A stretch of DNA of 39,509 bases, from positions 1 through 39,509 of the forward strand of contig CAYSDE010000002.1 of NCBI GenBank assembly GCA_964429685.1. The letters run 5' to 3'. The notes beneath the pieces were generated by a model that had not been told where the DNA came from, ran no database searches, and saw nothing but the letters and a program-made list of their open reading frames with translations. Positions 1-39,509 of this stretch are shown here, piece by piece. Both the position numbers and the translations under genes were made by a program. Origin of the DNA: an uncultured Pseudobdellovibrionaceae bacterium (lineage in GTDB: Bacteria; Pseudomonadota; Alphaproteobacteria; UBA2400). How positions within the stretch are numbered: the first letter of the stretch is position 1; each line of letters starts with the position of its first letter.

Positions 1-592
1 CGCGGGTGCCGTGCGCGGGATCAAGCGCCAGCGTCAGCCGGTCGAGAAAACGGCGGCGATGAGAAGGGCTCTCCGTCCACAGCCGGTCCATTGCCGGAGT
101 CAGCCAGTTGAGCGCCAGATGAGCCGAGAAAGCGGGCGGACTGGCTTTCTGACCGTCAATCACCACCACCCGGCGGGACGAGTCCGGTGTAGCCGGATCA
201 CGACCGGTGCCGAGCTGGATACTCAGCCCCCCTCCCGCCTCGCTACGCTCGGTATCCTCCCCCGCAAGCGGGAGAGGGGAAGAAAGCACCGCCCCATTTC
301 CCTCTCCCGCTTGCGGGGGAGGGTTAGGGAGGGGGCCCTTTATTCGGGGTTCTGTCAGTCGCGCTGACACCGCCCACGGCACTGCACACCCGAACTTCTG
401 GAACTCGGCAAGCTTTGCCCCCCGCAGCCCCCGCCCCGGCGCCAACAGGCTGATTGCCTCCATCACATTGGTCTTGCCCGCCCCATTCTGCCCGGTCAGC
501 ACAACACAGCCGGGTGCTAGCTCCAGCTGCGTATGGTCATAGCTGCGGAAAGCAGTGAGGGTGAGAGTGTTAAGAAAAGGCCGGTTAACCAT
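1..592 (-). CDS. recF: RecF, 5' portion of the gene; the 3' end runs off the window start
   Basis: The reverse frame is open from the window edge to ATG at 592-590. It is absent from the ORF track because there is no stop in the window. Translation MVNRPFLNTLTLTAFRSYDHTQLELAPGCVVLTGQNGAGKTNVMEAISLL... carries the RecF N-terminal FRSY motif and Walker A GQNGAGKT. Bases 1-565 match 1065-1629. Confidence 0.75.
   Translation of the reverse strand, partial: MVNRPFLNTLTLTAFRSYDHTQLELAPGCVVLTGQNGAGKTNVMEAISLLAPGRGLRGAKLAEFQKFGCAVPWAVSARLTEPRIKGPLPNPPPQAGEGNGAVLSSPLPLAGEDTERSEAGGGLSIQLGTGRDPATPDSSRRVVVIDGQKASPPAFSAHLALNWLTPAMDRLWTESPSHRRRFLDRLTLALDPAHGTR
227..334 (-). repeat. 108-bp nested-palindrome (RPE/MITE-like) element in frame inside recF copy 1
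   Basis: Same sequence as 1291-1398. It has two mutually reverse-complementary arms, cctcccccgcaagcgggagaggg and ccctctcccgcttgcgggggagg, each itself a hairpin. The ends are cccccctccc and gggaggggg. Confidence 0.7.
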
Positions 593-972: not shown

Positions 973-1656
973 TCCAGCGGTCACAAGTTCTGATACCCCG
1001 GCGTAGACAGGCCCATCTTTCAGCAGACGGTTGCGCTCGGCCAGCGCGTCTTCATAGCGGTTGACGCGGGTGCCGTGCGCGGGATCAAGCGCCAGCGTCA
1101 GCCGGTCGAGAAAACGGCGGCGATGAGAAGGGCTCTCCGTCCACAGCCGGTCCATTGCCGGAGTCAGCCAGTTGAGCGCCAGATGAGCCGAGAAAGCGGG
1201 CGGACTGGCTTTCTGACCGTCAATCACCACCACCCGGCGGGACGAGTCCGGTGTAGCCGGATCACGACCGGTGCCGAGCTGGATACTCAGCCCCCCTCCC
1301 GCCTCGCTACGCTCGGTATCCTCCCCCGCAAGCGGGAGAGGGGAAGAAAGCACCGCCCCATTTCCCTCTCCCGCTTGCGGGGGAGGGTTAGGGAGGGGGC
1401 CCTTTATTCGGGGTTCTGTCAGTCGCGCTGACACCGCCCACGGCACTGCACACCCGAACTTCTGGAACTCGGCAAGCTTTGCCCCCCGCAGCCCCCGCCC
1501 CGGCGCCAACAGGCTGATTGCCTCCATCACATTGGTTTTGCCAGCGCCATTCTGCCCGGTCAGCACAACACAGCCGGGGGCCAGCTCCAGCTGGGTATGG
1601 TCATAGCTGCGGAACGCAGTGAGGGTGAGGCTTGCGAGGTAAGAGACTGCCGTCAT
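958..1656 (-). pseudogene. recF: 3'-truncated second copy of recF (232 codons; RecF-like to about LLKDGPVY, then unrelated tail AGVSELVTAGSDHQ*)
   Basis: MTAVSYLASLTLTAFRSYDH...GQNGAGKT...HRRRFLDRLTLALDPAH...ERNRLLKDG matches the RecF N-terminal half. The C-terminal signature and Walker B half is absent. RecF is normally ~360-380 aa. Confidence 0.7.
1291..1398 (-). repeat. 108-bp nested-palindrome element in frame inside recF copy 2 (encodes PLPNPPPQAGEGNGAVLSSPLPLAGEDTERSEAGGG)
   Basis: It spans exactly 36 codons (aa 87-122 of the 232-aa ORF). These lie between WAVSARL and LSIQLGTGRD, where E. coli RecF has only a ~7-residue loop. It belongs to the same family as 1667-1774. Confidence 0.7.
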
Positions 1657-1666
1657 AAAAAGATGT

Positions 1667-1774
1667 CCCCCTCCCTAACCCTCCCCCGCTATGCGGGAGA
1701 GGGGACTACACGGTTTTCTTTGAGCCCTCTCCCGCGTAGCGGGGGAGGGTGACGAGCGAAGCGAGCCGGAGGGG
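1667..1774 (+). repeat. 108-bp nested-palindrome element, intergenic copy in the opposite orientation
   Basis: Sequence: ccccctccctaaccctcccccgcTATGcgggagagggg ... ccctctcccgcGTAGcgggggaggg ... ggagggg. It is colinear with the reverse complement of 1291-1398. Ends and stems are conserved while loops differ. Confidence 0.7.
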
Positions 1775-2699: not shown

Positions 2700-3821
2700 T
2701 CACACCCGCATCGGCATCAAGACATACAGCGCTGAACTATCCCCGGCTTCGGAGACGATTGTTGGCGAGGCGGAATCGGCCAGCGTCAGCTGGGCGGCGT
2801 CGCCTTCGATCTGCTGGGTGATTTCGTAGAGGTAACGGCTGTTGAAGCCGATCTCCATCGGAGCCGATTCGTAGGACACTTCAATTTCCTCATCACCGGC
2901 ATTGCCGCCTTCGGCGCTGTTGGCCGACAGCTTGAGCGCACCCTTGGAGAGGGCCAGCTTGACCGCTCGGGTTTTTTCCGAGGAAATGGTGGCGACGCGA
3001 TCAACGGCAGAGGCAAAAATCTTGCTGTTGACCTGCAGCACCTTGTCGTTGCCGGAGGGAATAACCCGCTCGTAATCGGGGAAAGTGCCGTCGATCAGCT
3101 TGGTGGTCAGCACCAGACCGCCCACGGTCAGCCGGGCTTTGGTAGCAGAGAGGGCGAGGGTGATGTTGTCCGCGCCTTCCTCAAGCAGCTTGCGGATTTC
3201 GCCCACCGCTTTGCGCGGCAGGATGATTCCGGGCATCCCTTCGCCACCCTCGGGCAGCGGCACTTCCATGCGGGCGAGGCGGTGGCCATCGGTGGCGACA
3301 GCGCGCAGCACCTTGGTGCCGTGCGAGGTGGCCGCATGCAGATAGATACCGTTGAGATAATAGCGGGTTTCCTCGGTCGACATCGCAAATTTGGTACGGT
3401 CGATCAGGTGGATCAGACTGTCAACTGACAGCTTGATGCTGTGGGGTAGCTCACCGCCCGCCATTTGCGGAAAATCATCAACCGGCAGACAGCCAAGCTT
3501 GAAATGCGAGCGACCGGCCTTGATGGTCAGCTGGTCTTTGCCCGCCGGACAATCCAGTTCGACATCCGAGCCCTCGGGGAGCTTACGCACAATGTCATAC
3601 AGCATGGCGGCCGGGGCGGTGGTGGCGCCGGGCTGGGCGACATCGGCGCGCACCGTCTCGACAATCTCCAGCTCCATATCAGTGGCCGACAGGTGCAGGG
3701 CGCCCTTTTCCGCCTTGAGCAGAACATTGGCAAGTATCGGAATGGTATTGCGTTTTTCAACCACGCCCTGAGCATGGGCCAAAGCCTTCAACAGCGCGCC
3801 GCGATCAATGGTCAGTTTCAC
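2700..3821 (-). CDS. dnaN: DNA polymerase III beta sliding clamp, intact (373 aa)
   Basis: MKLTIDRGALLKALAHAQGVVEKRNTIPILANVLL...RYYLNGIYLH...LYVLMPMRV is the full-length DnaN pattern and has typical length. Confidence 0.93.
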   Translation of the reverse strand: MKLTIDRGALLKALAHAQGVVEKRNTIPILANVLLKAEKGALHLSATDMELEIVETVRADVAQPGATTAPAAMLYDIVRKLPEGSDVELDCPAGKDQLTIKAGRSHFKLGCLPVDDFPQMAGGELPHSIKLSVDSLIHLIDRTKFAMSTEETRYYLNGIYLHAATSHGTKVLRAVATDGHRLARMEVPLPEGGEGMPGIILPRKAVGEIRKLLEEGADNITLALSATKARLTVGGLVLTTKLIDGTFPDYERVIPSGNDKVLQVNSKIFASAVDRVATISSEKTRAVKLALSKGALKLSANSAEGGNAGDEEIEVSYESAPMEIGFNSRYLYEITQQIEGDAAQLTLADSASPTIVSEAGDSSALYVLMPMRV

Positions 3822-3891
3822 GGGTATCCTCCCCCAGAATGAACTTGTGGCGGATATAGCACGATTCCCGGAGAGTCAACGGATAGATTCA

Positions 3892-4416
3892 TCAGCCGCA
3901 GCGCCAACGTGCATAAAGAAAATCATCAACAATGTTGCCGCGCTGCCGGGTCCGGCCTTTCAGCACGGCTTCGCGGACGAAACCGGCCTTTTCCAGCACC
4001 CGCTGTGAGGCGGTGTTGTCGGGAAAGGTCAGGGCTTCCAGCCGGTTGAGCGACGGGTATTTTTCAAACAGGTGAGTGGCATAGGTGGAGAGGGCCAGCG
4101 TGGTGACACCCTGACTGCGGGCGCTCCGCCCGGTCCAGTAGCCGATTTCGGCGAAGACGGCACTGGGGCTGAAGCGGGAGACTATCCCCATCATGCCGAT
4201 CAGCCGGTCATTCTGGGTTAAGCAAAGCTGTGTGCTGTCTGTCCGCCCAACGTTGCTGAGGAGAAACTGCGCGGCATCGTCCTCCGTGTAGGGATGAGGA
4301 AAATTGTCTCCCACGCCATAAACCAGATCGGCATCATCAGCCTGCCGGACCAGATCAGCTTGATCCGTCGGGCGGAGCGGGCGCAGGGCATAGCCGGGGC
4401 GGGGCAGGGTGAGCAT
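3892..4416 (-). CDS. GNAT family N-acetyltransferase (RimJ/RimL-like), copy 1
   Basis: 174 aa. IGYWTGRSARSQGVTTLALSTYATHLF...LEALTFPDNTASQRVLEKAGF is the GNAT acetyl-CoA-binding core. Confidence 0.8.
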   Translation of the reverse strand: MLTLPRPGYALRPLRPTDQADLVRQADDADLVYGVGDNFPHPYTEDDAAQFLLSNVGRTDSTQLCLTQNDRLIGMMGIVSRFSPSAVFAEIGYWTGRSARSQGVTTLALSTYATHLFEKYPSLNRLEALTFPDNTASQRVLEKAGFVREAVLKGRTRQRGNIVDDFLYARWRCG

Positions 4417-5168
4417 GTTTTCCTCTTTTCCAAGGGTAGCCGTCCAGTGCGCCCTAAGGCAACAGGAAAACGGCCCCGGTGGAAAAATCTGGGTGCAGGG
4501 GCGAGGGTGATGTTGTCCGCGCCTTCCTCAAGCAGCTTGCGGATTTCGCCCACCGCTTTGCGCGGCAGGATGATTCCGGGCATCCCTTCGCCACCCTCGG
4601 GCAGCGGCACTTCCATGCGGGCGAGGCGGTGGCCATCGGTGGCGACAGCGCGCAGCACCTTGGTGCCGTGCGAGGTGGCCGCATGCAGATAGATACCGTT
4701 GAGATAATAGCGGGTTTCCTCGGTCGACATCGCAAATTTGGTACGGTCGATCAGGTGGATCAGACTGTCAACTGACAGCTTGATGCTGTGGGGTAGCTCA
4801 CCGCCCGCCATTTGCGGAAAATCATCAACCGGCAGACAGCCAAGCTTGAAATGCGAGCGACCGGCCTTGATGGTCAGCTGGTCTTTGCCCGCCGGACAAT
4901 CCAGTTCGACATCCGAGCCCTCGGGGAGCTTACGCACAATGTCATACAGCATGGCGGCCGGGGCGGTGGTGGCGCCGGGCTGGGCGACATCGGCGCGCAC
5001 CGTCTCGACAATCTCCAGCTCCATATCAGTGGCCGACAGGTGCAGGGCGCCCTTTTCCGCCTTGAGCAGAACATTGGCAAGTATCGGAATGGTATTGCGT
5101 TTTTCAACCACGCCCTGAGCATGGGCCAAAGCCTTCAACAGCGCGCCGCGATCAATGGTCAGTTTCAC
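4218..5168 (-). pseudogene. dnaN: Truncated dnaN copy: the first ~222 codons are identical to dnaN, then it reads out of frame across the duplication junction into the GNAT region
   Basis: Identical to 2700-3821 through ...EGADNITLA. After the junction at ~4499-4504 the tail is PAPRFFHRGRFPV... Only 4499-5168 is dnaN-derived. Confidence 0.8.
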
Positions 5169-5238
5169 GGGTATCCTCCCCCAGAATGAACTTGTGGCGG
5201 ATATAGCACGATTCCCGGAGAGTCAACGGATAGATTCA

Positions 5239-5763
5239 TCAGCCGCAGCGCCAACGTGCATAAAGAAAATCATCAACAATGTTGCCGCGCTGCCGGGTCC
5301 GGCCTTTCAGCACGGCTTCGCGGACGAAACCGGCCTTTTCCAGCACCCGCTGTGAGGCGGTGTTGTCGGGAAAGGTCAGGGCTTCCAGCCGGTTGAGCGA
5401 CGGGTATTTTTCAAACAGGTGAGTGGCATAGGTGGAGAGGGCCAGCGTGGTGACACCCTGACTGCGGGCGCTCCGCCCGGTCCAGTAGCCGATTTCGGCG
5501 AAGACGGCACTGGGGCTGAAGCGGGAGACTATCCCCATCATGCCGATCAGCCGGTCATTCTGGGTTAAGCAAAGCTGTGTGCTGTCTGTCCGCCCAACGT
5601 TGCTGAGGAGAAACTGCGCGGCATCGTCCTCCGTGTAGGGATGAGGAAAATTGTCTCCCACGCCATAAACCAGATCGGCATCATCAGCCTGCCGGACCAG
5701 ATCAGCTTGATCCGTCGGGCGGAGCGGGCGCAGGGCATAGCCGGGGCGGGGCAGGGTGAGCAT
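5239..5763 (-). CDS. GNAT family N-acetyltransferase, copy 2 (identical to 3892-4416)
   Basis: The 174-aa translation is identical to copy 1. Confidence 0.8.
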   Translation of the reverse strand: MLTLPRPGYALRPLRPTDQADLVRQADDADLVYGVGDNFPHPYTEDDAAQFLLSNVGRTDSTQLCLTQNDRLIGMMGIVSRFSPSAVFAEIGYWTGRSARSQGVTTLALSTYATHLFEKYPSLNRLEALTFPDNTASQRVLEKAGFVREAVLKGRTRQRGNIVDDFLYARWRCG

Positions 5764-5898
5764 GTTTTCCTCTTTTCCAAGGGTAGCCGTCCAGTGCGCC
5801 CTAAGGCAACAGGAAAACGGCCCCGGTGGAAAAATCTGGGTGCAGGGGCGATTTTTAGCTGACCGTGCAACCCTGCCGAGTTATAGTCGAGAGATGAG

Positions 5899-39309: not shown

Positions 39310-39346
39310 TCTTCTATTCTCCTTCCCCCGTTTGCGGGGGAAGGTC
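39310..39346 (+). repeat. Partial copy (half-element) of the palindromic element family
   Basis: The hairpin ccttcccccgTTTGcgggggaagg is followed by tcgggatgggggg. Confidence 0.5.
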
Positions 39347-39379
39347 GGGATGGGGGGCATGGTGGTTTAGTCAGAAAAT

Positions 39380-39428
39380 TCAGGGTTTTTCCCCGCATCC
39401 CTCCCCCACCCTAGCCCTCCCCCGCAAG
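39380..39428 (+). repeat. Partial copy (other half) of the palindromic element family
   Basis: tccctcccccaccctagccctcccccgcAAGCgggggaggg resembles the left end of 1667-1774 (ccccctccctaaccctcccccgc...). Confidence 0.5.
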
Positions 39429-39509
39429 CGGGGGAGGGAATTGAGCAGCCTATGCGTATACTGCTCCCCGTTTCGGGCTAGCGTGTGACAAGAGAGTGAT
39501 TGGGCTGCT

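Follow-up and report, generated by a model that had tools for sequence, protein, structure and literature searches.

A triplex-motif repeat doublet in frame within recF of an alphaproteobacterial metagenome bin, and the repeated occupation of two RecF loops by its family

The stretch of DNA analysed here, called the window, is the whole of contig C2 (39,509 nt) of a metagenome bin. The bin totals 2.04 Mb in 264 contigs, has 57.6% G+C and is 79% complete. Part of recF is present twice near the start of the window. Along the minus strand the order is dnaN (2700-3821), an unrelated ORF of 258 codons, a repeat at 1667-1774, recF copy B (958-1656), about 400 nt of other sequence, and recF copy A (2-592). 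Copy A is only the 5' part of the gene and runs off the contig start. Copy B follows the RecF sequence to about residue 215 (near base 1012) and is unrelated after that; as assembled, it is cut off there by a local duplication. The two copies share 98% protein identity over residues 6-197, and their N-termini differ. The rest of recF (the 3' half), followed by gyrB, lies on contig C20 in a 93%-identical allele that starts inside the element described below. The truncated and duplicated recF of the window may not be a working gene. Despite substitutions, the frame of the element is kept in both alleles, the one in the window and the one at the start of C20.

The minus-strand ORF 958-1656 encodes the peptide PLPNPPPQAGEGNGAVLSSPLPLAGEDTERSEAGGG as residues 87-122 of RecF copy B. 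This peptide, which runs PLPNPPPQAGEG...SEAGGG, maps exactly to 1291-1398, that is 108 nt or 36 codons. In the DNA, two triplex-motif (TM) units stand in inverted order with their tails outward, and by motif this doublet extends to 1399. Unit 1 (1364-1399, plus strand) opens with a hairpin, CCCTCTCCCGC-TT-GCGGGGGAGGG. TTA then links it to a purine block, GGGAGGGGG, which is the 3' arm of the hairpin in exact mirror image. Unit 2 (1291-1343, on the minus or coding strand) is the hairpin CCCTCTCCCGC-TT-GCGGGGGAGG, then a 19-nt linker, ATACCGAGCGTAGCGAGGC, then GGGAGGGGGG. The usual TTA linker would give TAG in the recF frame, and the long linker of unit 2 avoids this. A TM unit is free of stop codons in 4 of its 6 reading frames, and the same is true of the recF element. 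The spacer between the units (1344-1363, about 20 nt, unstranded) varies between copies of the family. Two arms of 26 nt each, at 1320-1345 and 1361-1386, are 96% complementary, and either arm is also a hairpin alone. With tools that consider Watson-Crick pairs only, the RNA of the whole 108-nt element folds as a single long hairpin (-86.9 kcal/mol, z -6.7, 0 of 200 shuffles equally stable) and its DNA folds at -44 kcal/mol (z -6.6).

An identical copy of the element occupies 227-334 (minus strand) in the partial recF copy A. The repeat at 1667-1774 (plus strand) is an intergenic long-linker doublet, diverged and oppositely oriented. About 10 nt lie between its end and the start codon of recF copy B, which is downstream of it, and it adjoins the point of divergence between the two recF copies. 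The initial annotation of this DNA had described a palindromic element of two arms that fills exactly 36 codons of recF in frame. It had also reported an identical insertion in the other recF copy and a diverged intergenic copy in the opposite orientation. Our analysis agrees with it on each of these points.

That annotation further held that E. coli RecF has only about 7 residues at this site, and the ortholog alignment it proposed agrees with an insertion. The interval is about 42 residues long in the RecF of the window and 3-8 in 29 related RecF genes, and the excess is due to the 36 residues that the element encodes. RecF matches in 41 related genomes split in two around the segment, and 3 genomes of the same family have 2-8 residues there. 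The solved RecF structure 5Z67 is 43 residues shorter across the interval. Among the best 114 RecF homologs from a collection of 5.8 billion proteins, the interval has a median of 19 residues; it is long in only 3, and the segment is absent in 111. One can imagine that the segment is an ancestral loop of RecF. This is ruled out by its absence in the 29 relatives, by an ortholog of 73% identity (P0002) that is empty at this site, and by the 111 homologs that lack it. The nearest named RecF relatives, at about 49% identity, belong to Azospirillum, Stellaceae and Aliidongia. The closest pair of filled and empty RecF genes has about 78% DNA identity, and 1291-1398 is the codon-exact span, from which the ends of the insertion may differ.

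It is worth considering where the insert sits in the protein. An AlphaFold2 model of the window's 215-residue fragment, made with 86 homologs, has confident strands at residues 74-81 and 123-131 with coil between them. Over residues 81-120 of this fragment model the mean pLDDT of 10-residue blocks is 46-69. A full-length RecF, P0001, is 96% identical to the C20 allele and has a mean pLDDT of 89.4. All segments of its model with pLDDT below 50 fall in the two insert sites, and the model superposes on 5Z67 with a TM-score of 0.88 at 2.8 Å. Confident strands, a low-pLDDT coil and the superposition on 5Z67 together place the insert, as modelled, in the loop that caps a beta-hairpin of the N-terminal sheet, within the ATPase head of RecF. 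A structural model was another check proposed in the initial annotation, and its outcome is this low-confidence loop between two confidently modelled strands. Judging from the RecF fold, the insert would lie on the protein surface. The predicted product is a Pro/Gly-rich, disordered loop of 36 residues that leaves the RecF fold intact.

Judged by its sequence, the element belongs to a family that already has a name. It is an inverted doublet of the G/C-rich intrastrand-triplex motif called BoxC, PIT or TM_ECO. The consensus of the half-element is a GC-clamped hairpin, CCCTCYCCCGC-loop-GCGGGRGAGGG, then a linker and a purine block in mirror image to the 3' arm of the hairpin. Holder 2015 gives the TM_ECO pattern as CCCTCNCCC-N3-6-GGGNGAGGG-N3-GGGNGAGGG with one stem mismatch permitted (PMC4666352). 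The unit at 1364-1399 reads CCCTCTCCC-GCTTGC-GGGGGAGGG-TTA-GGGAGGGGG and fits this pattern with one mismatch. An antiparallel purine-motif triplex requires mirror symmetry between the second and third blocks, and the unit has it, since GGGGGAGGG reversed is GGGAGGGGG. The TM_ECO pattern with at most one mismatch (third stem) has 31 matches in the genome and 0 in a shuffled genome; the strict pattern with no mismatch has 0 matches in the genome. Rfam holds no matching family, only sub-threshold look-alikes among microRNA hairpins, so the element is no known RNA family.

A good deal is already published on this motif. TM_ECO occurs 3610 times in 262 proteobacterial genomes, makes a triplex in vitro, and has no associated mobility genes (PMC4666352). 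Its loci are linked to local genomic instability and are hotspots of local rearrangement, and the copies in E. coli K-12 are always intergenic (PMC4666352). Earlier triplex-motif work by Hoyne and Maher is cited there (PMC4666352). The intergenic location describes the E. coli copies and is no part of the motif definition.

The genome, of about 2 Mb, holds about 90-100 TM units. The exact hairpin-plus-tail pattern has 43 matches, one of them at 1365-1399 in unit 1, and a reversed-pattern control has 0. There are 101 hairpins in 72 loci. A generic detector of complementarity and mirror symmetry, set to accept 8 or 9 Watson-Crick matches out of 9 and likewise 8 or 9 mirror matches out of 9, yields 90 units in this genome and 0 after shuffling. 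The units come in three arrangements. Some are single. Others form tails-out doublets of about 100 nt like the one in recF, and the spacers and loops of these vary between copies. The third arrangement is an element of about 125 nt that has a TM unit, a spacer and an inverted TM unit with the tails inward. It has about 19 full copies with about 85% identity. One lies in the window at 39321-39442 (minus strand), and its ends are arranged as around DUF559 genes. The contigs of the bin often end at these repeats. Because the repeats break assemblies and adjoin local duplications, they can distort gene calls in metagenome bins.

The family is expanded in this lineage. The strict pattern has 1, 0 and 0 matches in three sister genera, though it undercounts variants: G003 has 0 matches, yet its DUF559 gene is flanked by variant units. 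Across the class the unit pattern is found in 8 of 401 genomes, with 83 matches in one of them. An exact 35-mer, scanned for in a collection from which the records of the window's own genome were excluded, also occurs in Xanthobacteraceae, Pseudomonas citronellolis, P. delhiensis, Gallionella, Abditibacterium and freshwater bins labelled Rickettsiales. As far as these sequence matches go, the distribution is very patchy and extends across phyla, since it comprises 8 of 401 genomes and a scatter of other taxa.

The copies inside genes deserve separate attention. Our screen took frames that run through a repeat locus without a stop and extend at least 40 codons beyond it in both directions, and the host genes were checked against Pfam. 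There are 8 in-frame sites in 7 Pfam-verified genes, which account for 9 of the 72 repeat loci. Two sites are in recF: site 1 is the element at 1291-1398 (minus strand), and site 2, at C20:470-560, is between a long helix and the next strand. In both the E2 and the E1-beta subunits of pyruvate dehydrogenase (PDH) the repeat is in the linker after the lipoyl domain, and in Mfd it is between domains 2 and 3. The other hosts are GluQ-tRNA synthetase (GluQ-RS), a PMT_2-type glycosyltransferase and QueG, each with the repeat within the gene. The QueG and Mfd inserts are absent in 3 of 3 sister genera. Another 7 stop-free frames span a repeat and were not counted as in frame. Six of these were compared with Pfam; 5 have no match and resemble antisense frames of G+C-rich genes, and the sixth is a ComEC copy with the repeat upstream of the ComEC domains.

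In-frame copies occur elsewhere too, but they are rarer than here. The exact 35-mer has 124 sites in other taxa, and 3 of them look truly in frame: in an AcrB-like pump of Gallionella, in GlyS of a bin labelled Rickettsiales, and in an RluA-like synthase. Selection would keep only those insertions that preserve the frame, contain no stop and fall in permissive loops. This would explain the in-frame position of every genic copy and its placement in a loop or linker. The initial annotation had suggested that a family comparable to the palindromic elements of Rickettsia (RPEs) is present throughout this genome. The genome scan that it proposed supports the suggestion: the exact matches, the hairpins and the tabulated in-frame copies amount to a dispersed motif that is also in frame in other housekeeping genes. 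The family name, the second in-frame recF copy and the flanking of DUF559 genes go beyond that annotation.

The orthologs of RecF allow the history of the two sites to be examined. P0001 (L148), the protein 96% identical to the C20 allele, has the same doublet at site 2, but at site 1 both the doublet and the loop residues beside it differ. P0002 (L151) has 73% protein identity to the C20-allele RecF and is empty at site 1 and at site 2. P0003 (L150), at 65%, is empty at site 1 and has a long-linker doublet at site 2. P0004 (L149), at 60%, has both sites filled with its own unit variant. P0005 and P0009 are close relatives of P0003 from the genus of G001, and both sites are empty in them. The RecF sites of the sister genera G002 and G003 are empty as well. 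We argue that the two RecF loops have been hit repeatedly, because in four relatives each is either vacant or occupied by a variant specific to the lineage. This pattern is most simply explained if insertion or turnover took place several times, independently, at two permissive loops. Site 2 adjoins a conserved C-rich tract, TTCCCCNCCCCC, which encodes F-P-x-P, and this tract hints at a target preference or at microhomology.

One can imagine instead a single ancient insertion at each RecF site, with later losses and with overwriting by gene conversion or recombination with other copies. Such a history fits the use of the same two positions by all filled orthologs. It also fits the RecF pair of 96% identity, whose site 1 doublets and flanking residues differ as in local turnover, and the report that TM loci are local rearrangement hotspots (PMC4666352). 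However, P0005 and P0009 are empty at both sites and their close relative P0003 is filled at site 2 only, and G002, G003 and P0002 are also empty. An ancient insertion therefore needs many independent precise losses, and we regard it as unlikely. A different argument would be that the insert has been recruited for a function, either as mRNA structure (a stem of about 23 bp that would pause ribosomes or recruit RNase III) or at the protein level, as a loop useful to RecF. Inserts at the same site have unrelated sequences in different lineages, the loop is predicted to be disordered, and most relatives have no insert, including the 73%-identical ortholog. The repeat is also found in linkers of unrelated proteins. 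Against these points can be set the very stable RNA hairpin, the frame kept in two alleles that differ by substitutions, and the conservation of site 2 between C20 and L148. On balance a recruited function is quite improbable.

The remaining alternatives concern what the element is. An artefact of assembly (a chimeric join), or a lineage-specific expansion of low complexity unrelated to the repeat family, would have to explain in-frame TM doublets at the same RecF positions in 3 independent assemblies from other samples (L148, L149 and L150). It would also have to explain an insert that matches dispersed genomic copies unit by unit. The bin does have 264 contigs and is 79% complete, contig breaks are frequent at these repeats, and the recF region is duplicated in the window, but we find such an explanation barely credible. 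REPINs have the same architecture, in which short palindromes pair as an inverted doublet and fold into one long hairpin, and REP/REPIN doublets are moved by a RAYT transposase of the IS200/IS605 (Y1) type. No match to the RAYT family PF01797 was found in 7 genomes, including this one and two repeat-rich genomes of the class, G058 (83 units, 100% complete) and G139 (100% complete), whereas 6 of 14 control genomes gave matches. The GTAG and CGTC tags of REPs are named in PMC3733652, and the units here have neither as a head; they end in CCCTC... and ...GGGGG. With no RAYT gene and no such tag, the REP/REPIN identity is rejected as highly improbable, slightly less so than an artefact. We consider it quite likely that the 108 bp are an inverted BoxC/PIT/TM_ECO doublet inserted at the tip of a RecF beta-hairpin. 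It would make a stop-free loop that the fold tolerates, in a family that has expanded and has refilled the same two loops.

The units also lie next to a particular gene. The genome has two full-length DUF559 genes (C12:2853-3158 and C48:7879-8190), which match PF04480 at 125-133 bits, and each has a unit on either side at a distance of 5-45 nt. With 72 loci spread over 2.04 Mb, we estimate a probability of about 1e-5 that any one gene would have units within 100 nt both upstream and downstream. We compared 34 DUF559 loci drawn from genomes of the class: a unit lies within 150 nt of 22 of them, and in 14 this holds upstream as well as downstream. The density of units is 4.07 per kb within 150 nt against 0.034 per kb in the remaining 1.5-kb flanks, a 119-fold difference. 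The purine tail faces the gene in all 36 gene-proximal units (20 upstream and 16 downstream), and this is the orientation of terminal inverted repeats. Long-linker units of the unit 2 kind also flank DUF559 genes in other genomes (L186, L187 and L197). The 125-nt family has the same arrangement of ends without a gene, and these are similar to the ends that the C12 cassette has. The recF doublet has no DUF559 gene inside. DUF559 genes and inverted TM units are thus physically associated. The association may run in either direction: units may be mobilised by the nuclease, or pre-existing units may serve as homing sites for the gene.

A mechanism can be proposed from this, and we hold it only tentatively. 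The units would be the terminal inverted repeats of a small cassette whose sole gene is a DUF559 nuclease (Vsr-like, PD-(D/E)xK). The gene-less singlets, doublets and 125-nt elements would then be non-autonomous relatives moved in trans. Since the tails of the recF doublet point outward, opposite to those of the cassette, it is not a simple internally deleted cassette. Variation in spacers and loops from copy to copy means that no single master copy gave rise to a recent burst. The 19 aligned 125-nt copies, like nine doublets, show no visible target-site duplication. None was seen in the filled and empty RecF pair either, but that pair is too diverged (78% DNA identity). Among the classical features of a MITE, then, the inverted ends are present and no duplication was seen, and the candidate parent is the DUF559 cassette and not an insertion sequence.

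The Vsr clade of PD-(D/E)xK nucleases, which includes DUF559, contains a proven homing endonuclease, I-Bth0305I (PMC3424549, PMC3239194, PMC12907096). Caulobacter VsrA, a characterised DUF559 protein, has a proposed role in T:G mismatch repair and not in mobility (PMC3424549, PMC3239194, PMC12907096). VsrA was the sole characterised DUF559 protein that our literature search found, and the search found no published link between DUF559 and these repeats. A wider version of the cassette scenario is that the BoxC/PIT/TM repeats in general are the terminal inverted repeats and gene-less offspring of a selfish DUF559 cassette of about 450-500 bp. Such a cassette would be widespread in bacteria and would spread within and between phyla. 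Since most reading frames of the repeat have no stop codon, it could enter essential proteins in frame wherever a loop is permissive, and do so at the same loops time and again. We regard this version as possible, and a shade more doubtful than the mechanism itself.

The RPE-like way of life is new for a known repeat family, and the feature is real. In-frame palindromic repeats in housekeeping proteins are still regarded as peculiar to Rickettsia. A 2024 review describes them as unusual and offers their occurrence elsewhere only as speculation (PMC10969869). Here an apparently unrelated and very widespread family, reported as strictly intergenic in E. coli, does likewise in a free-standing alphaproteobacterial lineage. 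Our literature search found no published report of an in-frame lifestyle for the BoxC family, of recurrent use of RecF loops or of an orientation-specific link to DUF559. The recurrent filling of RecF shows, as a natural experiment, which sites of a well-studied repair protein are permissive. It is also a system in which target preference can be separated from selective filtering. The BoxC/PIT/TM repeats have been an orphan family since the 1990s. The DUF559 association supplies a candidate enzyme, and with it a 30-year-old question about the nature and spread of these repeats becomes testable at the bench.

Several known systems resemble the one described here. The repeat-flanked gene belongs to the same Vsr/DUF559 clade as the nucleases discussed above. 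REPs and REPINs are also short palindromes, single or in inverted doublets that form long hairpins, with high copy number. However, REPs are extragenic, and the repeats here come without a RAYT or a GTAG or CGTC tag. Intragenic MITEs such as ERIC in enterobacterial genes are small and non-autonomous and are occasionally in frame (Delihas 2007, as related in PMC10969869). In contrast, the repeats here show no visible target-site duplication and lack a parent insertion sequence, and their in-frame frequency is far higher at about 1 in 8 loci.

In behaviour the element matches the RPEs. As PMC10969869 relates from Ogata et al. 2000 and 2002, these are palindromic elements of 100-150 bp with no associated transposase, and they lie in frame in many unrelated housekeeping genes at surface loops compatible with the fold. 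Unlike them, the repeat here extends beyond one genus and is physically linked to the DUF559 nuclease family. Its sequence also appears unrelated, and it is G/C-rich and built of triplex-motif units. Rickettsia genomes are A/T-rich. The element is RPE-like in behaviour and not an RPE by family, because its family is already named as BoxC, PIT or TM_ECO. With that family it shares the C-rich block, the loop, the complementary G-rich block, the 3-nt linker and the mirror G-rich block. It also shares the frequent inverted doublets, the patchy distribution among genomes, the lack of a transposase nearby and the local rearrangement. A GC clamp lengthens the hairpin here, GGGAGGGGG or GGGTGGGGG takes the place of GGGNGAGGG as third block, and there is a subtype with a linker of 18-19 nt. 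A further difference is one of place: the E. coli copies are reported to be always intergenic, whereas conserved genes hold 9 of the 72 loci here, in frame.

Many contigs of the metagenome bin start or stop within a unit of the triplex motif (TM) repeat. Such units lie at contig ends at C20:1-64, C131:19-56, C6:77-114, C70:1-36, C183:4-44, C172:3667-3696 and C120:5869-5923. Since many contigs begin or end this way, TM repeats are a major source of assembly breaks in this bin and may conceal more genic copies.

It is worth considering what surrounds the repeats. Four copies of the 125-nt element (C175:1076-1202, C136:693-819, C25:4924-5050 and C49:6510-6632) have similar flanks on both the left and the right, and so belong to a repeated unit that is larger than the element. 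At its right end the family has GGAGAAGGAAAGAAG, with an ATG a few bases further on, which looks like a ribosome-binding site ahead of a start codon. Two complete genes for DUF559 (Vsr-like) nucleases, one within C12:2713-3216 and one within C48:7775-8249, have TM units on both sides, and the final codons of each gene extend into the downstream unit.

The C20 copy of recF has a C-rich tract, TTCCCCNCCCCC (C20:555-575), immediately downstream of insertion site 2. The tract encodes F-P-x-P and is conserved at the equivalent position in the close recF relatives (L148-L151). It is similar to the C-rich tail of the TM repeat, and may represent microhomology or a target preference.

The exact 35-nt unit is also found in frame in other taxa. 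The host proteins were assigned by eye, solely from the protein sequence flanking the unit: an AcrB-like efflux pump in a Gallionella bin (L045; frame of 1075 codons), glycyl-tRNA synthetase beta in a bin labelled Rickettsiales (L058; frame of 736 codons) and, in an alphaproteobacterial bin (L079), an RluA-like pseudouridine synthase.

In the window itself, a tandem duplication with a 1347-bp unit (3152-5851) has produced a second, truncated dnaN (4218-5168) and an additional GNAT gene (5239-5763). The slot between dnaN and recF holds an ORF of 258 codons (1890-2666). This slot differs among the relatives, which have ORFs of 116 (L148), 193 (L150) and 87 (L151) codons there, and all of these ORFs are mutually dissimilar.

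The assembly also shows an apparent partial duplication of recF (1-1664), in which bases 1-472 are identical to 1065-1536. Past this 472-nt stretch the two copies have seven single differences and then diverge completely, at about 566 in copy A and about 1630 in copy B, within the first recF codons. An intergenic TM doublet (1667-1774) is about 35 nt from this divergence point. This arrangement fits the published instability near triplex motifs.
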